Shown piece by piece: positions 14,234-59,755 of a DNA stretch of 64,000 nucleotides. The position numbers and the translations under genes are program-made. Positions within the stretch are counted from its first letter, which is position 1. Each line of letters opens with the position of its first letter. The stretch spans positions 2,445 to 66,444 of the forward strand of contig JAVBQS010000019.1 in the NCBI GenBank assembly GCA_031548835.1, in the 5' to 3' direction. The stretch is from Spirochaetia bacterium (GTDB lineage: Bacteria; Spirochaetota; Spirochaetia; CADAEX01). The notes beneath the pieces were generated by a model, which was given only the letters and a program-made list of their open reading frames with translations, had not been told where the DNA came from and searched no databases.

Positions 14234-14414
14234 AAAATTATGAAAAATATCATGCTGGTGTATAAAAAATAATACACTGGCATGAACAATATTCCAATCC
14301 ACTTTTATTAAAAATAATAAATCCTTATACCGCAAGTAATTATTTAATTAAAAAAACTTTTATAGATGGCACGGTAATTGCATGTTAGTTAGCAAATCTA
14401 TATTGAGGTGATTT

Positions 14415-15038
14415 TTGAATAATTTACTTAGTGTTATTACAACAAAAACTTTTCCCGCAAACATTTTGGAATTAAGAACAGAGTTGTTTAGAAAAAGCAT
14501 TCATATGCTTATTGCTTTAGTTCCAATGATAGCTGCAATTGATAAAGGAATTGCGCTTGCATTGCTTGGCGGCGGAGCAATAATATACACTTATTCAGAA
14601 ATGTTAAGAGCCAGAGGGCTTAGCCTTATATTTATTTCAGGCATTAAGAATTTTGCATTAAGAGAAAAAGATAAAAATAGTTTTGCAGGAGGGCCTGTAA
14701 CACTTGCTCTTGGCGCAATGATTGCTCTTCTTTTTTATCCATCTGATGTGGCAAAAATTGCAATCTATGCTCTTGCTTTTGGCGATGGTTTTGCAAGTCT
14801 TATAGGAAAAACTTTTGGTGTAACTAAAATACCTTTTACAGGGGGAAAAAGCTTTGAAGGAAGTTTTGCATGCTTTTTTGCAATATTGATTTCATCTTTT
14901 AAAATTACATCAAATATTGGAGTATCTTTTACAACAGCTCTTGTTGTTACAGTTGTGGAAGCTTTTCCGCTTGGCGACTATGATAACATTATTATTCCCA
15001 TAGTTGCAGGTTCCACTGCTTTAATAATGATTGGCTAG
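14415..15038 (+). CDS. CTP-dependent polyprenol (dolichol/phytol) kinase-like membrane protein (CdsA superfamily)
   Basis: Probable TTG start after SD 'gaggtga'. Multi-TM protein with 'AFGDGFASLIGKTFG' (GDGxAxxIGxxxG motif of the VTE5/Sec59 kinase family). Confidence 0.45.
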   Translation: MNNLLSVITTKTFPANILELRTELFRKSIHMLIALVPMIAAIDKGIALALLGGGAIIYTYSEMLRARGLSLIFISGIKNFALREKDKNSFAGGPVTLALGAMIALLFYPSDVAKIAIYALAFGDGFASLIGKTFGVTKIPFTGGKSFEGSFACFFAILISSFKITSNIGVSFTTALVVTVVEAFPLGDYDNIIIPIVAGSTALIMIG

Positions 15039-29917: not shown

Positions 29918-30619
29918 ATGATAAAAGCTATTGTATTTGATTTTGTTCAGACACTTGGCAGCGCTGCAGATGGCTATAAAGATGCTGAAAAAAAATCTCA
30001 GAAAAAACTATATGAAAAACTTGGCATCAATGACTGGGATAAATATATGGATCTATACAGGGAAGAGAGAAAACAGCATTTTTTAAGATCTGATTTTTCA
30101 AGAAAAAATGTCTGGATAAAACTTTGTGATTATTTTAATGTTCCTGTGGATAATAAATTTCTTGATCAGCTTGAAGACCAGTATTGGGAAATTGTAAAAA
30201 ACAGCATGAAACTTTTTCCTGAAGCGCTTGATGTAATTAAGAAATTAAAGCCCAGATATAAGCTTGGCATGGTTTCCAATTCCCAGAAAGACGGCAGCAC
30301 AAAAGCTCTTGAAAATGATGAATATAAAAAGCTTGAAAAACTGTTTGATGCAATTGTTATATCAGGAGAAGGAAATATTCCTGCCAAACCAGACCCTGCG
30401 CCGTTTAAAATAGTTTTGGAAAAACTTGGTGTTAAGTCGGAAGAAGCTATTTTTGTTGGAGATGATTTTAGAGTAGATATTGAAGGCAGCAAAAATGCAG
30501 GAATGACACCTGTATGGCTTAAGCATTACTCTGTTGAACGCAACTGGCCTGAAGCATCATTCAAAGTTATAGAAATAACCAATCTTGAAGATGTAGTTGA
30601 TATAGAGAAAAAGCTTTAG
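29918..30619 (+). CDS. HAD-superfamily hydrolase (phosphatase-like)
   Basis: N-terminal 'IVFDFVQTL' (motif I). Motif IV 'GDDFRVDIEGSKNAGM'. 233 aa. Confidence 0.8.
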   Translation: MIKAIVFDFVQTLGSAADGYKDAEKKSQKKLYEKLGINDWDKYMDLYREERKQHFLRSDFSRKNVWIKLCDYFNVPVDNKFLDQLEDQYWEIVKNSMKLFPEALDVIKKLKPRYKLGMVSNSQKDGSTKALENDEYKKLEKLFDAIVISGEGNIPAKPDPAPFKIVLEKLGVKSEEAIFVGDDFRVDIEGSKNAGMTPVWLKHYSVERNWPEASFKVIEITNLEDVVDIEKKL

Positions 30620-30663
30620 GGTATTGACCTGTTAGAAAGTAATCGTTAACATGAAAAATAGTT

Positions 30664-31569
30664 ATGAATCTCTATCATTTAAAGACTTTTTATTATACTG
30701 CAAAATGTAAAAGCCTTACAAAGGCAGCAGATATGCTGTGTATTACTCAACCTGCTGTTACCAAGCAGATTAAACAGCTCCAGAGCTACTATGACCTTAA
30801 ATTCCTTGATATTATAGGGAAAAAAGTTATTCTTACTGATGCAGGTGAACATCTCTATAGCATTGCAGATAAAATTTTTGATATGGAAAGCCAGGCAGAG
30901 GAAAGCATCAAGGATTTCCAGCATTTTAACAAAGGCAAGATTTCAATATTGTCATGCGAAAGTTTTGGAGCTTACTATCTTCCCTATATTATTAAATATT
31001 ATAGCAAAGCAAACCATGATATAAATGTTTCCATGATTATTGGTCATAACGAAAGTATTATTGAAAATACAGCAGAGCTTAATAATGATATAGGATTTAT
31101 ATCAAAACCTATTCAGAATCCAAAAATATCAGTGCAGGAAATTCTTGAAGATAATATTGTGTGTATTGTTCCGCGCAACCATCAGCTTACAAGAAAAGAT
31201 CATCTTGAAGTAAAAGATATTGAAGGATACAACCTTATTGTACATGAAAAAGGTTCTGTAACCAGAAAAATAACAGAAACTTTTATAAGAAAAAATAGAA
31301 TTAATGTAAATATGCATTATGAAATTTCAAATAATGAAACTATAAAAAGGCTTGTTGAACAGGGCCTTGGAGTCGCATTTATATCAAACAATATGGTAAA
31401 TGAAGAAGTAAAAACAGGGAGATTAATTGCCCTGCCTGTTGAAGATAAAAATTTTAAAAGAAAATATTATATGATCCACCACAGCGATAAATATTTTTCA
31501 AAACCTCTTAAAGATTTTGTAGACCTTGTGCACCAGTGGTCTAATATTTATCCTACGCCAATGTTTTAA
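30664..31569 (+). CDS. LysR-family transcriptional regulator
   Basis: N-terminal wHTH 'LKTFYYTAKCKSLTKAADMLCITQPAVTKQIKQLQ'. About 300 aa with a C-terminal substrate-binding domain. Confidence 0.9.
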   Translation: MNLYHLKTFYYTAKCKSLTKAADMLCITQPAVTKQIKQLQSYYDLKFLDIIGKKVILTDAGEHLYSIADKIFDMESQAEESIKDFQHFNKGKISILSCESFGAYYLPYIIKYYSKANHDINVSMIIGHNESIIENTAELNNDIGFISKPIQNPKISVQEILEDNIVCIVPRNHQLTRKDHLEVKDIEGYNLIVHEKGSVTRKITETFIRKNRINVNMHYEISNNETIKRLVEQGLGVAFISNNMVNEEVKTGRLIALPVEDKNFKRKYYMIHHSDKYFSKPLKDFVDLVHQWSNIYPTPMF

Positions 31570-32057
31570 AGAAACAGTATTTTAAATTCTTTTTCAAAAT
31601 TAGGTGTAAAAATATTTTTGCCCAGCCTATCTTTAATTTCTTTTATTGAAAAAAATCTGCCGTCTGTTACTTCATTGTTATCTATTTTAAATGGGCCATT
31701 ATAATTTGTTTTATATACAAAAGAAAGCTCTGTTTCTGTCTCATCTTTGTTAAGCTGTGTAAATAAAAATTCAGCATTTTTTAGATCAATTCCCAATTCT
31801 TCTTTTGCTTCTCTTACAAGCGCTGTATAAATATCTTCACCTGCTGATACATGGCCGCCTACAGCTGTATCCCACATATCAGGATATGTATCTTTGGTTG
31901 CTGCTCTTTTCTGGAGAAAAATTTCTCCTCTTGAGTTAAGTATTAATAAGTGGACAACCATCTGAATCATCGAAGGGTCTTTGTGGCAAATACTGCGCGG
32001 AGCGCTTCCTTCAGGAATTCCATCGGAGTTACATAACTGAATCATCTCTTCTTTCAT
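31566..32057 (-). CDS. Nudix hydrolase
   Basis: Nudix box 'GGHVSAGEDIYTALVREAKEELGI'. 163 aa. Confidence 0.85.
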   Translation of the reverse strand: MKEEMIQLCNSDGIPEGSAPRSICHKDPSMIQMVVHLLILNSRGEIFLQKRAATKDTYPDMWDTAVGGHVSAGEDIYTALVREAKEELGIDLKNAEFLFTQLNKDETETELSFVYKTNYNGPFKIDNNEVTDGRFFSIKEIKDRLGKNIFTPNFEKEFKILFL

Positions 32058-32187
32058 AAAATTAATAATAACAGTGCAGAATATAGATGTAAAGCAGTGC
32101 CATCTTTATTAATTAAACTGCTGCATTAAAAAATTATATATTTTGAAATAACAATAAAAGCCAAGTTTAAAGTTATTTTAGTAATTA

Positions 32188-32358
32188 GGCCTGTTCGACA
32201 ACCTGGTTAGAAGTTATTTTGTGAATACCAAATAAGTACTAATTTGGAGACAATGTATGATTTTTTACAGGTAGTTCATAATCTTAAAGGTTTTATTTTA
32301 TAACCCCGGCATGACTTACCATACCGGGGTTACCATTTTTAGGTTGTCGAACAGGTCT
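32188..32358. repeat. 171-bp element bounded by 15-17-bp perfect inverted repeats (CCTGTTCGACAACCT), containing a small ORF and a strong internal hairpin. MITE-like, or a structured leader/ncRNA.
   Basis: The left IR is at 32190-32204 and the right IR at 32341-32355 (aggttgtcgaacagg). The internal 9-bp hairpin taaccccgg/ccggggtta at 32301-32332 is followed by 'ccattttt'. A 16-codon ORF (MYDFLQVVHNLKGFIL, 32253-32303) has GGAG 3 nt upstream. Confidence 0.6.
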
Positions 32359-32408
32359 ATTATATAAAATATATACATTTATATTTATATGGCTTAAAAT
32401 AATAAACT

Positions 32409-34169
32409 ATGGGGTATTTCTTAAAATACAGAATTAATATTAAAATTTTTATATCTTTTATCTTTATAATTCTTGTCACAACCGTTACTTCTCTGTTAAT
32501 CAACTACTTGTTATTTAAGGATTCTGTTAAAAAATCAAATATAATAAGACTGCAGGACAGCACCACTGCTTACTATAATGAAATCAAATTTACCGAAGAT
32601 ATATGCCTTAAAGCAGTAAGCACGTTATCCAAAGATAATACTCTTTCTGATTTAATACTGTTAAAAAATACAGATACTCTTGGTAAAATACTTGGCAATT
32701 ATTACAAAATGGGATTGTTTGATATTGTTGAAATTGAAAATCCTGACGGAACTGTTTTTATAAGAGCTCACGATCCTGATCAAAGCGGAGATCTTAAAGC
32801 AGAACAAAATATTGTAAAAGAAGGACTTGCAGGAAAAATAGCTGTCAGTTATGAAAGCGGTAAATCAGGCATTGCGATAAGAGCAGTCGCCCCTCTTGAG
32901 AAAGACGGCAAAATAATAGGACTTCTGATGCTTGGAAAACTTTTCTCGGAAGAACTTGTGGCAAATATGAAAAAGCTTACAGGGCTTGATAATGGAATAT
33001 ACTGGAAAGATAAAAAAATAATTTCTACCTATGATGGAATTCAAACTATTTATAATGATAAAATGGAAAAACTTTTGGAAAATGGCTCTGTCATATTTGA
33101 TGAAGTAATTGGCAAAGATAGATATTATTTTATGATCAAGGCTTTATATACAGATGATCAGCGCTACTGGGGAGCAGTAACTTTATTTATTAAAGAAAAA
33201 GATAATGCAGGCTATCTTTCATATATAAAAAGCATTCTGTTTTTTATGGTAATGATAGGTTTTTTTCTTTCTTTTTTAGCTTATCTTCTTCTTGCAAATG
33301 ATATAAACAATTCTTTAAGTAAAATTATTGATAGAATCAATAATTTTAACATAGATGACAGTTCTCAAATAATAGATGTAAAAGCAAATGATGAATTTAA
33401 AATAATTGCAGACAGTATAAATAATCTTTCAAAAAAAATATATAAATATAACCAGCAAATAGTAAAGCTTCAGGATGACATGATAAGGTCTGCAAAACTG
33501 GCAGTTGTCGGTCAGCTTTCGGCAGGACTTGCCCATGAAATAAGAAATCCGTTGAGCTCTATAAAAATGATGTCGCAGATAATAAAGGCCAGATATTTGC
33601 ATAATAAGGAAGGCCTTGAAGAAATTAATACAGTACTTGAAGAAATTGAAAGAATTGATAATTTAATTAAGGATTTGCTGGAATTTTCAAAACCAGGGCC
33701 TATGTATTTTGCGCAGCATGATATTAATAAATTAATTCTAAATACTTTAAATAAATACAGATATAATATTGAACATCAAAAAATAACAGTTGAATATAAT
33801 TTTGAAAAAAAATTGCCTCTAATATCTGTGGATAGTGAAAAAATACAAATCTGTTTTATAAACTTTATTGTTAATGCAATTCAGGCAATGGCTGAAGGCG
33901 GAAAACTTACAATAAATACAATGCTGCAAAATGATAAAATAGTTATAGAATTTAAAAATAACGGGCCTTTAATTTCTGAAAAAGATATAGATAAAATATT
34001 TGAACCATTTTTTACTACAAAAAAAGAAGGCACAGGATTGGGCCTTGCTCTTACAAAATTAATAATTGAAAGACATTATGGAAAAATATTTTCTTCAAGC
34101 AATGAAAAAGAAACAGTTTTCAGCATAATCCTTCCTTTGGTAAATAATAATATTATTCCAATTGTATAA
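32409..34169 (+). CDS. Sensor histidine kinase with periplasmic (Cache-like) sensor domain
   Basis: Two TM helices flank a roughly 250-aa extracytoplasmic domain. H-box 'HEIRNPLSSI'. HATPase motifs 'GTGLGLALTK'. Confidence 0.85.
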   Translation: MGYFLKYRINIKIFISFIFIILVTTVTSLLINYLLFKDSVKKSNIIRLQDSTTAYYNEIKFTEDICLKAVSTLSKDNTLSDLILLKNTDTLGKILGNYYKMGLFDIVEIENPDGTVFIRAHDPDQSGDLKAEQNIVKEGLAGKIAVSYESGKSGIAIRAVAPLEKDGKIIGLLMLGKLFSEELVANMKKLTGLDNGIYWKDKKIISTYDGIQTIYNDKMEKLLENGSVIFDEVIGKDRYYFMIKALYTDDQRYWGAVTLFIKEKDNAGYLSYIKSILFFMVMIGFFLSFLAYLLLANDINNSLSKIIDRINNFNIDDSSQIIDVKANDEFKIIADSINNLSKKIYKYNQQIVKLQDDMIRSAKLAVVGQLSAGLAHEIRNPLSSIKMMSQIIKARYLHNKEGLEEINTVLEEIERIDNLIKDLLEFSKPGPMYFAQHDINKLILNTLNKYRYNIEHQKITVEYNFEKKLPLISVDSEKIQICFINFIVNAIQAMAEGGKLTINTMLQNDKIVIEFKNNGPLISEKDIDKIFEPFFTTKKEGTGLGLALTKLIIERHYGKIFSSSNEKETVFSIILPLVNNNIIPIV

Positions 34170-34181
34170 AAGAGGTGTTGT

Positions 34182-34529
34182 ATGGCATCAATACTTGTAA
34201 TAGATGATGATAAAGGCATTCAAAAAAGTTTTGCTAACCTATTGAGTAAAGAACACGAGGTTTTAAGCGGATATAACGGAAAAGAAGGGCTTGAAATTCT
34301 TGAAGCCAGGGAAGCTGATATGGTTTTTCTTGACTATCAAATGCCGGGAAGCGACGGCATTGAAGTATTAAAAATAATAAAAAAGAAAGAACCTGAATTG
34401 CCTGTAGTCATGATTACAGCGCATGGCAGTTTTGAAACAATAATAGAAGCAATATCTTTAGGCGCATATGATTATATAGAGAAACCTCTTGATATTGATA
34501 AAATTAATATTATCGTAAAAAGAGCATGA
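34182..34529 (+). CDS. Response-regulator receiver domain (N-terminal part of an interrupted NtrC-type activator)
   Basis: 'ILVIDDDKGI', 'DMVFLDYQMPGSDG' and the conserved Lys region 'VVMITAHGS'. It ends with TGA at 34527-34529, in frame with the next ORF. Confidence 0.85.
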   Translation: MASILVIDDDKGIQKSFANLLSKEHEVLSGYNGKEGLEILEAREADMVFLDYQMPGSDGIEVLKIIKKKEPELPVVMITAHGSFETIIEAISLGAYDYIEKPLDIDKINIIVKRA

Positions 34530-34541
34530 GAATCCTGCAGG

Positions 34542-35570
34542 ATGAACAAATATGTGAATGCTGTGCAATCTGAACAGATAAAAAACTATGGATTTAAAAA
34601 AATTATAGGAAATTCAACCGCAATACAGGAGGTTTTTAAATCTATAGGAAGGCTTGTTAATAATGATGTTATTGTTCATATAGCAGGAGAAAGCGGGACA
34701 GGAAAAGAGTTGGTTGCACATGCGCTGCACTTTAATGGCAAGAGAAAAAATGAACCTTTTATTGCTGTTAACTGTTCCGGCCTTATAGAATCTATTTTGG
34801 ACAATGAACTTTTCGGCCATGAACCGCAGGCTTTTACAGGCGCTGTATCGCTTAAAATAGGAAAATTTGAAGCAGCAGGAGAAGGAACAATATTTCTTGA
34901 TGAAATTGGAGATATGCCTCTTACAATACAAACAAAATTCCTGAGAATTCTTCAGGAAAATGAATTTCACAGAATGGGTGGACTTAAAAATATTAAATTA
35001 AAGGCAAGAGTTATAACTGCAACAAACAGAAATCTTTTTGAAGAAGTACAGGCAGGCCGCTTTCGGGAAGATCTTTATTACAGAATAAATGTTGCAAAAA
35101 TAATTTTGCCGCCCCTTCGGGAAAGAAAAGAAGATATTCCTGAACTTACAGATTTTTTTGTTCAAAAAATTTCAAGAAAAATTAACAAAAGTTTTATATC
35201 TGTGCCTGAGCAAATAAAAAATGAATTTATAAATTATGATTGGCCTGGAAATGTAAGAGAGCTTGAAAATCTAATTACAAGTATGTGTATAAATGCAAAA
35301 GGAGCTGTTCTTGCATTAGACGATATGCCGGCTACTGTTTTAAAATCATCAAGAGAAGATTGTCTTTCCAAAGTTATAGATAAATTTTATATGGAAAATA
35401 AACATTCAAAAAATCTGCTTCCTCTGCTTTATGAAAAACTTGAAAAAATAATGATAGATAAAATTGCACATGAGCAGAACAATAATAAATCTGCCATGGC
35501 AGAAATACTTGGGATAAGCAGGGTTACGCTTACAAAAAAAATGAATCAGGATGAAAAAAGCCATAATTAA
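34542..35570 (+). CDS. Sigma-54 interaction (AAA+) domain plus Fis-type HTH (C-terminal part of an interrupted NtrC-type activator)
   Basis: Walker A 'GESGTGKE'. The GAFTGA-like 'GHEPQAFTGA'. 'VRELEN'. C-terminal HTH 'SAMAEILGISRVTLTKKM'. It is in the same frame as the receiver ORF, separated by TGA plus 4 codons. Confidence 0.85.
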   Translation: MNKYVNAVQSEQIKNYGFKKIIGNSTAIQEVFKSIGRLVNNDVIVHIAGESGTGKELVAHALHFNGKRKNEPFIAVNCSGLIESILDNELFGHEPQAFTGAVSLKIGKFEAAGEGTIFLDEIGDMPLTIQTKFLRILQENEFHRMGGLKNIKLKARVITATNRNLFEEVQAGRFREDLYYRINVAKIILPPLRERKEDIPELTDFFVQKISRKINKSFISVPEQIKNEFINYDWPGNVRELENLITSMCINAKGAVLALDDMPATVLKSSREDCLSKVIDKFYMENKHSKNLLPLLYEKLEKIMIDKIAHEQNNNKSAMAEILGISRVTLTKKMNQDEKSHN

Positions 35571-35761
35571 AAAATGCTTTTGTAAAAAAGCTTATCAATA
35601 GTGATAAATTGCTTTACATATTTTTTATCTTTTGGAAAAAACTGCCCATTTGTTTGGACAGTTTAATTAAAATTTATTTTAATTATTTATAATATAACTA
35701 TTTATTTCTAAATATCATTTTCAAAGATATTATACAACTTGGCATATTTTATGCATATATA

Positions 35762-36382
35762 ATGGCAGATAGTAAAATGTTTAAGCATTTATTCAAAAAA
35801 AGAGTAGGGCTGGAAAATAAAATTATTGAAGAGATTGATATAGTTCTCTCACTCATTGAAACTATGGGCAAAACAGCAACTGAGCCAAATTCTTTTATTA
35901 TTGCAAATAATATACTTGAACTTGAAACAGTTTTAGATAAGCAGGAACAAGAATTTATAGAACAGATCAACAAGCAAAACCATCTGCCTGATTGCTGGGA
36001 GGAGCTATTTAAAATAAGTAATAGTTTAAAACAACTGTTTAAACAGCTTTCTATGGCTTTTAATAAAATTCAGATATTTAAAGATAATGAATCTTATTTT
36101 TCATTCTATGAGCATGAAAAAAGATTTCTTTTTAATATTAAAAATTTTATTTATGAATATGTTAAAAACCGCAAATATGCATATCAGCTTGTGGTAAATA
36201 ATCAGCATGAACTTAAAGATTTTATGAAAATATATTATACAAAACTTAATGCTGCATTTGGCGGCAGCCCAGAGCATTCTGATATAAAAATAAAAATGCT
36301 GGAGATTTTTCAGCAAATAAATAAAATAAACGAAGAGGTGCAGGAAACAGTAACTAAAATATATGTTAGTTCAGGTGTTTGA
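35762..36382 (+). CDS. Hypothetical all-helical protein (possibly a PhoU/DUF47-like accessory protein of the downstream Na/Pi transporter)
   Basis: 206 aa, predicted helical, no diagnostic motif. Placement upstream of a Na/Pi cotransporter is the only basis for the PhoU-like suggestion. Confidence 0.4.
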   Translation: MADSKMFKHLFKKRVGLENKIIEEIDIVLSLIETMGKTATEPNSFIIANNILELETVLDKQEQEFIEQINKQNHLPDCWEELFKISNSLKQLFKQLSMAFNKIQIFKDNESYFSFYEHEKRFLFNIKNFIYEYVKNRKYAYQLVVNNQHELKDFMKIYYTKLNAAFGGSPEHSDIKIKMLEIFQQINKINEEVQETVTKIYVSSGV

Positions 36383-51807: not shown

Positions 51808-51881
51808 TGGAGGTGGTGGGAATTGAACCCGCGGCCTCGTGAATGCCATTCACGCGCTCTAGCCAACTGAGCTACACCCCC
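51808..51881 (-). tRNA. tRNA-Ala (anticodon GGC)
   Basis: The reverse complement folds as a cloverleaf. Acceptor stem GGGGGTG/CACCTCC with the G3:U70 alanine identity pair. D-arm GCTC/GAGC. Anticodon stem CGTGA/TCACG with loop ATGGCAT. T-loop TTCAATT (one mismatch in the T-stem). Discriminator A, no encoded CCA. Confidence 0.85.
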
Positions 51882-57493: not shown

Positions 57494-59755
57494 ATGAAAA
57501 AGAAAAATATTTATTGTTTTTTATATTTGTTTCTTTTAATTTCTATTCTTTTTCAGGTGTCATCATGTAAAAAAAAGAAAGAACAGGCTGAAGAAATAAA
57601 AAAACTGGATGCTGTTGTAACATTTGTGTCAGGAGATGTTTTTGTAATTTCTGAAAATGCAATTCTTCCTGCTATAGTTGGAAATATTTTGAAAATAGGA
57701 GATTCTCTTAAAACAGCGTCAGACTCATATCTTGAAATACTTATTGATGGAAAATCAGTAATAAGAATGGATGAAAATACAGAACTTGCAATAGAACGGC
57801 TTGTATCTTCCGGAACAGAAACAGATATTTCCGTTTCTCTTTTAAGCGGAAGCATTATAAATAAAGTTGAAAAAATAGTAAGCTCATCAGAAAATTATTC
57901 TGTAAAAACAAAAAGCGCTGCTTTTGGAGTAAGAGGAACAGAATTTATGGTTTCTTCTCCTGAATCAGGAGAACCTGTTCTTGCTGTAAAATCAGGAAGC
58001 GTGCAGATGATTCCTCATTCAGATGTTATTGAAAGACTTAAAGAAAAAGCTCCTGCTCGTGATGAAAATGTTGAAACATTTATAAAATTGGTTGAAGAAA
58101 GTTTTCCTGTTGTAACAGGAGGAAGCGAGATAGCTATAACACCTGATTTATCAGCAGAAATTTTAAAATCTCTTTCAACAGTTGAGACAGCTGTTGATGA
58201 TGTCAGAGCTGGAAGATTAAGGGCAAGAGATCTTTCCGAAGTTGTTTCAAGCTCTTCTATTACTGCCAGATCTGAAGCAGAAAAAACCCTGGCTTTGGTA
58301 AAAAGCATTGATAATGCCAATCTTGAAAAACTTAAAATAACAGATTTTATGCAGGTGTATGATAATAGTGAAAAACTTAAAGAAGTTATTTTTAAAACAG
58401 AACCTGCAGGAGCCAGAATTTATTTTGACGGAAGTTTTATAGGTCTGGGTTCTGTCAGCGCGCTTCTTGCAGAAGGGCGTACAGTAAAAGTAACTGCTGA
58501 ATATGAAGGCTATGAATCTTTTGAAAAAGAACTTGTGATTTCTGAAATTACTGAAAAGCCGTACATAATAACACTTAAACCAAAAGAGCCGGCAAAAGGC
58601 TATTTTGAATTATCTGTCCTGCCTGCTGATGCTGAAATCTTTATTGGAAACAGGGGCGCAGGAAGAGGAATGTATACAGGCAGCTATGCTCCTGGAACAA
58701 AGCTTGATATTTCTGTGCAGAGAAAAGAATATAAAACTGAAAATCTCTCTGTTGAAATTAAAGAGGGAGAAACTTTAAAAAGAAATATTGCGCTATCTGT
58801 GCTGCTTGTGCCATATTCATTTGATACAGGATTTAATAAAGCAGATGCAATTATTCCTGCAGGAAGAGGCTACTATACAGTTTCTTCAAGCGGAAATGGT
58901 TTTTCTGTAATAAATTCAGAAGGAAAAACTCTGTTTAAAAATAGCGATGCTAATGCAGGTGTTCCTGTATTTTCAGGAGGAAAACTCTTATTTGTATCTG
59001 AAAATAATTTCAAAGCTATAGATACAGCAAGCTGGAAAGAAGCAGGAACTATTGAACTTGAAGAAGCTCCGTATAGAACTCCTGTCCTTGATGGTAATTC
59101 TGTTCTTATAAACAGCGGAGATTCAATTCTTGTTGTAAATAACGCTGATTTTAAACTTGGCAGAAAAGTAAAAGTGCCTGATACAGTTGTTTCATATCCG
59201 TATTCCTATAACAGCAGAATTTTAACAGTAACTGATAAAGGAGTTCTCCAGGTTTTCGGACAGGAAGATACACCTCTCTCTTCTGTGCCTGTAACACTGG
59301 GAAGCCCTAAAGGCATAAGCATTGCTGTAAATAGCAATGTAGGTTATTTTGCAAATGTAAATGGCTCTATTAATGCTGTAGAGCTTCAGACAGGCAATTT
59401 TCTTTGGGGCGGAAAATTCCAGCCTGATATTTTAGGCAAGCTTCCGTATTTAAGCGCATCTGAACGCGGCATTATGATTTACTCAAATAATGCACTGAAA
59501 TTTTTTAAATTAAGCGGAGAGGAAATAAAAGAGATAGAAAAAGTAAAAAGCTTTTGTCAGGGTGAGAATTTTCTTATTTATGCAGCTTCTGAAACTGGAA
59601 GAATTACAGCATATAATCCTGTATCAGGCGCTGCTGTAAAATATGCAGACACAGGCATCTCTCTTGAAAGTATTGTTTATAGAGATGGAAAAATTCATGG
59701 AGCATCGGAAAACGGAAAATATGTTGTTATAAATCCCGCTGCATTCAGGCAGTAG
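57494..59755 (+). CDS. Lipoprotein with FecR-like domain, PEGA domain and C-terminal beta-propeller-like region
   Basis: Lipobox 'FQVSSCKK'. N-terminal FecR-like 'VVTFVSGDVFV...GDSLKTASDSYLEILIDGKSVIRMDENTEL'. PEGA-like 'TEPAGARIYFDGSFIGLG'. Confidence 0.65.
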   Translation: MKKKNIYCFLYLFLLISILFQVSSCKKKKEQAEEIKKLDAVVTFVSGDVFVISENAILPAIVGNILKIGDSLKTASDSYLEILIDGKSVIRMDENTELAIERLVSSGTETDISVSLLSGSIINKVEKIVSSSENYSVKTKSAAFGVRGTEFMVSSPESGEPVLAVKSGSVQMIPHSDVIERLKEKAPARDENVETFIKLVEESFPVVTGGSEIAITPDLSAEILKSLSTVETAVDDVRAGRLRARDLSEVVSSSSITARSEAEKTLALVKSIDNANLEKLKITDFMQVYDNSEKLKEVIFKTEPAGARIYFDGSFIGLGSVSALLAEGRTVKVTAEYEGYESFEKELVISEITEKPYIITLKPKEPAKGYFELSVLPADAEIFIGNRGAGRGMYTGSYAPGTKLDISVQRKEYKTENLSVEIKEGETLKRNIALSVLLVPYSFDTGFNKADAIIPAGRGYYTVSSSGNGFSVINSEGKTLFKNSDANAGVPVFSGGKLLFVSENNFKAIDTASWKEAGTIELEEAPYRTPVLDGNSVLINSGDSILVVNNADFKLGRKVKVPDTVVSYPYSYNSRILTVTDKGVLQVFGQEDTPLSSVPVTLGSPKGISIAVNSNVGYFANVNGSINAVELQTGNFLWGGKFQPDILGKLPYLSASERGIMIYSNNALKFFKLSGEEIKEIEKVKSFCQGENFLIYAASETGRITAYNPVSGAAVKYADTGISLESIVYRDGKIHGASENGKYVVINPAAFRQ

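Follow-up and report, generated by a model that had tools for sequence, protein, structure and literature searches.

A Probable Nonautonomous Transposon with IS5-Family Ends Upstream of a Histidine Kinase Gene in a Spirochaetia Bacterium

Introduction

A conspicuous palindrome lies between a Nudix gene (31566–32057, − strand) and a dCache histidine kinase gene (32409–34169, + strand) of a Spirochaetia bacterium, and the question raised by this locus is what kind of element the palindrome bounds. Coordinates are those of the window, meaning the whole 64,000-nucleotide stretch of DNA that was analyzed (contig JAVBQS010000019.1, positions 2,445 to 66,444). On the 3′ side of the kinase gene come a receiver/sigma-54 activator gene and then a Na/Pi cotransporter gene. 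A first-pass annotation, made from the window sequence by itself, had placed the palindrome between the Nudix and kinase genes, which is where we find it. It offered three readings: a MITE-like mobile insertion, a leader-peptide attenuator controlling the downstream two-component/sigma-54 system, or a small structured RNA with a long closing stem formed by the inverted repeats. We asked which of these is borne out by the element itself, by the same locus in related genomes, and by occurrences of its ends in other bacteria. The features are as follows.

32183–32187, left flank AATTA; putative target duplication, either TA at 32186–32187 or, with the left end of the element moved out by one base, ATT at 32184–32186
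32188–32357, no strand, the whole element, 170 bp, with no transposase ORF; probable MITE-type nonautonomous transposon, its ends matching an IS/MITE family
32188–32204, + strand, left terminal inverted repeat GGCCTGTTCGACAACCT; 16/17 against the family consensus GACCTGTTCGAYAACCT
32205–32340, no strand, AT-rich interior of 136 nt; unique
32253–32303, + strand, 16-codon ORF MYDFLQVVHNLKGFIL, with GGAG 3 nt upstream; conserved nowhere
32301–32340, + strand, GC-rich hairpin followed by CCA and TTTTT; 9-bp core, 13 bp with one mismatch, 6-nt loop
32341–32357, − strand, right terminal inverted repeat, reading inward as GACCTGTTCGACAACCT; 17/17 against the family consensus
32358–32362, right flank TATTA; putative second copy of the duplication, either TA at 32358–32359 or ATT at 32359–32361
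32372–32400, + strand, promoter-like core of the kinase gene, TATACA-17-TAAAAT; conserved in relatives and outside the element

The sequence abutting the element is GTTATTTTAGTAATTA on the left side and TTATATAAAATATATACATT on the right side.

Results

Boundaries and Copy Number of the Element

The element is delimited by an exact 15-nt inverted repeat, CCTGTTCGACAACCT at 32190–32204 and its reverse complement AGGTTGTCGAACAGG at 32341–32355, with a spacing of 136 nt. By a dinucleotide-shuffle control, 0.01 chance matches to the arm 15-mer are expected per whole window. Allowing one mismatch, each arm can be lengthened outward by two bases (left, GGCCTG...; right, ...CAGGTC) to 17 nt, and with this extension the element becomes 32188–32357, or 170 bp. 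The perfect 15-bp terminal repeats and the AT-rich body described in the first-pass annotation are both there; of the bounds it gave, 32188–32358, the start stands, and the end is one base too long. A repeat search also proposed a 31-nt extended repeat. This was rejected as the boundary because its outer part, TATAAAATA, is conserved promoter-proximal sequence in relatives that have no element.

Within the 64-kb window, the element is present in a single copy, with no second copy detected by pattern match, blastn-short or nhmmer. A two-mismatch match to an arm at 59250 was set aside as chance, being inside a coding region and having no partner arm. The two-arm pattern GTTCGACAACCT-N121-151-AGGTTGTCGAAC gave 0 matches in genome contigs and 0 in metagenome contigs, and blastn of the element against plasmids and phages returned only noise (E ~0.6). 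On viral contigs, the bare 15-mer, which is too short for specificity, gave single chance matches only among the matches listed. A full-text literature search with the repeat sequence brought up unrelated primer matches and nothing else. The 136-nt interior has no detectable similarity to the IS sampled below, to the other short elements with the same ends (131 loci), or to the rest of the window.

Contents and Predicted Fold of the Interior

The ATG of the 16-codon ORF, at 32253, follows a GGAG at 32246–32249 with a gap of only 3 nt, and its TAA stop is at 32301–32303. That TAA is also the first triplet of a hairpin with arms TAACCCCGG (32301–32309) and CCGGGGTTA (32324–32332), and a TTTTT run at 32336–32340 begins 3 nt past the stem. 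The GGAG-preceded mini-ORF, the hairpin based at its stop codon and the T-run had all been noted in the first-pass annotation, and all are present at 32246–32340. The hairpin has the form CCCCGG-N-CCGGGG, and no second one like it occurs in the window. A consensus terminator scan called 0 sites; the hairpin was not called a terminator because the T-run begins 3 nt after the stem. There is no competing anti-terminator helix in the predicted folds, and a consensus scan found no promoter-like site within the element on either strand. Counterparts of the mini-ORF and hairpin were found in none of the relatives or other family elements examined. It is most likely that the 16-codon ORF is fortuitous.

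The element has a predicted folding energy of −67.5 kcal/mol, with z = −8.5 on the + strand and z = −7.7 on the − strand. Since the fold is strong on both strands, the structure is strand-symmetric, as expected for a DNA palindrome, and in itself is no evidence for an RNA. Rfam 15 returned nothing over the element at the gathering threshold or at a permissive E-value threshold. The best sub-threshold scores over it were ≤23 bits, compared with gathering scores of 39–136 for the models concerned. The sole Rfam match in the window is a tRNA at 51808–51881.

The Locus in Related Genomes

The nearest relatives of the kinase have ≤70% amino-acid identity to it and come from Spirochaetaceae metagenome-assembled genomes. 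In the four nearest relatives that keep the Nudix–kinase gene order (L003–L006), the intergenic region is 135, 143, 80 and 80 bp, respectively, compared with 351 bp in the window, and in none of the four is there a sequence like the element. Three others (L001, L007 and L010) have two phosphate-related genes between the Nudix and kinase genes, and element-like sequence is likewise absent upstream of their kinase gene. By comparison of these loci, the element is an insertion relative to the related genomes, which are distant (≤70% kinase identity) and yield no precise empty site.

What the relatives do share with the window is a promoter-like core before the kinase ATG, conserved in alignment A1 as ...AAATATATACATTTAT...ATATGGNTTAAAAT... 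In the window, it reads TATACA-17-TAAAAT and is the sole + strand sigma-70-like site called by the scan. The right end of the element is ~14 nt upstream of the −35-like hexamer. Because the element is upstream of the conserved promoter core, it is probably not part of the transcribed kinase leader, on comparative and consensus evidence.

Several other observations were made at this locus. Only 8 nt separate the end of the −10-like TAAAAT from the kinase ATG, which has no Shine–Dalgarno sequence before it in the window (32372–32411) or in relatives (L003, L004, L005, L001 and L010; alignment A1); this suggests a kinase mRNA that is leaderless or nearly so. Genes for a PHO4 phosphate transporter and a PhoU_div protein occur between the Nudix and kinase genes in L001, L002, L007, L009 and L010 and are missing from that position in the window, L003, L004 and L005. 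Together with the downstream Na/Pi cotransporter, these PHO4/PhoU_div neighbors suggest that the two-component system is linked to phosphate. One relative (L004:555–600) has a GC-rich hairpin of its own, ACCCCGTCCTTCAGGGCGGGGT, on the Nudix side of this intergenic region; it is unrelated in sequence to the one in the window.

The receiver/sigma-54 activator gene (34182–35570) is split by an in-frame TGA (34527–34529) into a 115-aa receiver and a 342-aa AAA+/HTH protein. Relatives have a single activator protein of 462–469 aa, and L003 has Leu at the TGA codon (VKRALETVKM versus VKRA*ESCRM here). The TGA might reflect a nonsense mutation of TTA to TGA, a fault in the assembly, or a genuine division of the protein in which the ATPase is released from its receiver domain. 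A sigma-54-type promoter-like sequence, TGGCATATTTTATGCA, is found at 35740–35755 (+ strand), just upstream of a 206-aa ORF at 35762 that precedes the Na/Pi cotransporter gene; the adjacent activator could plausibly act on it. A perfect sequence of this type, TGGCACGGTAATTGCA, is at 14367–14382 (+ strand), upstream of an ORF at 14415. At ≤2 mismatches, 46 sigma-54-type promoter-like sequences were found versus 32 expected.

One further contig bears on the strain. Logan contig L262 (SRR23967709; 1761 bp), found through the LysR protein, is 100% identical to window positions 30324–32084. It shows that the same strain is in run SRR23967709, and it stops ~100 bp before the element and so is silent on the presence or absence of the element there.

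The Same Ends in Other Bacteria

Sequenced genomes were scanned with TAGRCCTGTTCGACAACCT, a 19-mer common to both ends of the window element. The 11 matches are about the number expected by chance, and three of them have the opposite arm nearby, under a paired-arm criterion of ≤1 mismatch in the 15-nt core (≤4 for the second copy in L135). In Leptotrichia (L132), the arms bound a 903-bp element; in an Acutalibacteraceae genome (L135), they bound a pair of ~160-bp elements, each the reverse complement of the other; and in a Clostridiales genome (L137), they bound an 88-bp element. A metagenome scan with this pattern, relaxed to C or T at one position, gave at least 120 matches.

Among the matches listed from genomes and metagenomes together, there are at least 48 insertions with distinct flanks: at least 23 are 892–920 bp long, and at least 25 are 88–338 bp long. 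The short derivatives fall into at least five size classes. The 96 arms among the matches listed have the consensus GACCTGTTCGAnAACCT, with conservation stopping after position 17, and the consensus ends GACCTGTTCGAYAACCT bound both the ~900-bp IS and the short elements. Loci with these ends are in Bacillota and Fusobacteriota that are gut or oral anaerobes (genome scan) and on metagenome contigs of unassigned origin; none of the loci found could be assigned to a spirochaete. The ~900-bp IS5-family IS with ends GACCTGTTCGAYAACCT and its short derivatives appear to be uncatalogued in the resources searched.

One group of the short elements has its own pattern. These ~100-bp elements (L142, L144, L155, L187, L203 and ~17 more metagenome loci) have one perfect arm, GACCTGTTCGACAACCT, and one degenerate arm, GACTTGTTCGGAAACTT. 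They are inserted at many different sites, and in every insertion among the matches listed, the W of the flank signature described below is the same on both sides.

The Candidate Autonomous Partner

The ~900-bp elements contain two overlapping ORFs, one matching HTH_Tnp_4 and the other DDE_Tnp_4/DDE_Tnp_1. The two ORFs become a single one, for a protein of 274–276 aa, if a conserved A7/A8 run is lengthened or shortened by one A. The joined protein scores 172 bits on NCBIfam NF033581 (IS5 family transposase; cut-off 140), and its homologues are annotated as IS5 family transposases, those that are named being from other phyla. No match in the homologue search was named as a spirochaete, and tblastn detected no transposase of this kind in the window or in 10 spirochaete loci. 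Blastn of the IS DNA against plasmids gave no match. Judged solely by its architecture and its NCBIfam family, the ~900-bp IS probably belongs to the ISL2 group.

The A7/A8 run is at about position 451 of the IS (L194:5254–6153, L132:7050–7952 and at least 21 other loci). The two-frame arrangement of the transposase is compatible with programmed transcriptional slippage or with frameshifting.

Flanking Sequence and Target Duplication

Looking for a target-site duplication had been suggested in the first-pass annotation, and a candidate TA or ATT is found on both sides of the window element, within flanks that match the signature of the family. That signature, YAWTA to the left of the element and TAWTR to its right, was derived from 48 insertions among the matches listed. 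TA is on both sides in 45 of these 48, and flank positions −4, −2, −1, +1, +2 and +4 are each conserved in at least 46 of the 48 listed. The window flanks, AATTA and TATTA, conform to this signature, W being T in each. Position −5 is A in the window in place of the usual T or C, and A is also found there in four of the 48 family members among the matches listed.

Among the matches listed, 21 of 25 short elements (p = 8e-4) have the same central W left and right, as do 16 of 23 full elements (p = 0.05). This identity is consistent with an AWT duplication of 3 bp, in which case the element has one extra base on each side; the alternative is a TA duplication with a strong target preference. A 5-bp duplication was rejected, since it is exact in only 14 of the 48 among the matches listed. 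Duplications of 0, 2 or 3 bp are described for Harbinger relatives in the IS5 family (PMC12730594). A 2–3 bp duplication in AT-rich sequence is weak evidence for transposition when it comes from a single copy.

Discussion

The Element as a MITE

We consider it very probable that the element is a MITE, that is, 170 bp of noncoding DNA with 17-nt ends recognized by the transposase of a ~900-bp IS5-family IS. The reading of the first-pass annotation as a MITE-like mobile insertion is supported by the ends, which are those of an IS5-family IS and its short derivatives, by the family signature in the flanks, and by absence from orthologous loci. In the terms by which MITEs are recognized, the ends match those of an IS (16/17 and 17/17), the 170 bp contain a 16-codon ORF at most, the target signature is present, and the relatives lack the element. 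The putative link to the family is carried entirely by the 17-nt ends and the flanks, the interior matching neither the sampled IS nor the other short elements. Since the interior is unlike the sampled IS, the element is no simple internal-deletion derivative of that IS. It may be derived from a diverged relative of the IS, or it may be unrelated DNA that was caught between two ends.

The proposed course of events is that a transposase supplied in trans would bind both ends and excise the element, which would then be pasted into an AT-rich, TAWTA-like site in the Nudix–kinase intergenic region, with the insertion duplicating 2–3 bp (TA or ATT). The mini-ORF and hairpin would be cargo, and the long closing stem would simply arise from pairing of the transposon ends with each other. 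Any influence on the kinase operon would be a side effect, by an altered context upstream of the promoter or by blocking read-through from the left, and it would not be exerted as a leader.

So read, the element is ordinary, and there is no new regulatory RNA here. This accounts for the conspicuous palindrome and removes a false lead towards an attenuator or small RNA for annotation. It also marks a recent insertion right beside the promoter of a two-component/sigma-54 system. The family of IS and short derivatives could be of use in strain typing, or in studying how MITEs with unrelated interiors arise.

Alternative Readings

The alternative that deserves the most attention is still an unlikely one, namely that the element arrived by transposition and now serves the host. 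It might act as a terminator or insulator, stopping + strand read-through (from the LysR gene and antisense through the Nudix gene) into the kinase promoter, or it might yield a short RNA with its 3′ end at the hairpin and T-run. MITEs in other bacteria alter the expression of neighboring genes, and here the hairpin followed by CCATTTTT is oriented towards the kinase gene, is the only such hairpin in the window, and belongs to an element that adjoins the conserved promoter core. Against this, no terminator was called, the T-run having five T and beginning 3 nt past the stem; there is no promoter-like site in the element on either strand; the relatives do without the element in intergenic regions of 80–143 bp; and there are no homologues in which selection could be shown. 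There is little to favor recruitment of the element as a regulatory module, whether insulator-terminator or short hairpin RNA, of the kinase/sigma-54 activator operon with its apparent link to phosphate transport. If it had been recruited, the unique interior would be host-selected cargo between borrowed IS5-family ends. The occurrence of the same ends around unrelated interiors in Bacillota, Fusobacteriota, metagenome contigs and a spirochaete would then, if true, speak for a system spanning several phyla in which arbitrary short DNA is packaged over and over between these ends.

The remaining readings take the element to be something other than a transposon, and each is a very poor prospect. 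A leader-peptide attenuator, in which translation of the 16-codon ORF would control the hairpin and hence read-through into the kinase/sigma-54 activator operon, has going for it the GGAG before the ATG and the overlap of the stop codon with the base of a GC-rich hairpin with a T-run. Counting against it are the position of the element upstream of a promoter-like core that is common to relatives without the element (the −10 ending 8 nt before the ATG), the absence of the element from all the orthologous loci compared, and the lack of an alternative anti-terminator pairing in the predicted folds. The ORF has no regulatory codon run and, like the hairpin, no conservation, its GGAG is just 3 nt from the ATG, and the whole unit is bounded by transposon ends; we therefore regard this proposal of the first-pass annotation as highly improbable. 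Its other proposal, a structured small RNA gene with a stem closed by the repeats and unrelated to transposition, draws on the very stable fold (z = −8.5), but the opposite strand folds equally strongly, as an inverted-repeat transposon or any other DNA palindrome would. With no Rfam match at either the gathering or the E-value threshold, no promoter-like site found, no homologue in relatives or in large genome and metagenome collections, and the same 17-nt ends bounding transposase genes elsewhere, it is left with no positive evidence and very little likelihood. A chance palindrome or a paired protein-binding site, for example DNA-looping half-sites for the nearby LysR or NtrC-type regulators, would suit a divergent regulatory region beside regulator genes. 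However, a 15-nt exact match is expected only 0.01 times per window, neither arm is a dyad by itself, the arms are 151 bp apart center to center, relatives with the same regulators have no such arms, and the arms are transposon ends elsewhere, so this too we hold to be most improbable.

Comparison with Known Systems

The trp and his attenuators resemble the element in having a short ORF that ends at a hairpin followed by a T-run. They differ from it in that the element is upstream of the promoter core, is unconserved, shows no alternative pairing in the predicted folds, lacks regulatory codons, and has transposon ends.

Reading the element as a MITE invites comparison with the Correia elements of Neisseria and the RUP elements of Streptococcus pneumoniae, which are TA-flanked bacterial MITEs of 100–170 bp. 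RUP is attributed to an IS630-type transposase, and no partner is known for the Correia elements. Both are like the window element in their 100–170 bp length, terminal inverted repeats, TA flanks, intergenic positions near promoters, and potential to form a long RNA hairpin. They are unlike it in their end sequences and in the presumed transposase family, and there is no sequence similarity.

The IS5 family is the closer comparison. It includes prokaryotic relatives of the PIF/Harbinger–ISL2EU transposons, from which Tourist-type MITEs arise in eukaryotes. The end GGCCTGTTCG may resemble plant Tourist ends. IS5-derived MITEs, like the window element, are short, noncoding and intergenic, have the terminal repeats of an autonomous IS5-family element, and have an AT-rich target with a 2–3 bp duplication (0, 2 or 3 bp for the Harbinger relatives in PMC12730594). 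The window element is unlike them in that its interior is unrelated to the sampled IS and in being known here from one copy in 64 kb.

Among individual elements, ISCaa2 and ISCaa3 of Amoebophilus asiaticus are ISL2-group elements of 914–916 bp with two ORFs, a 275-aa transposase, and inverted repeats of 19/20 and 22/23 (PMC3196728, Table 2). The frames are joined there by −1 ribosomal frameshifting (PMC3196728), whereas a change of ±1 nt at the A7/A8 run, by slippage or frameshifting, would join them here. While the window element itself differs from ISCaa2 and ISCaa3 in having no transposase, its putative partner IS is like them in having a length of 892–920 bp among the matches listed, two overlapping ORFs, a transposase of ~275 aa, and terminal repeats of ~17 nt.
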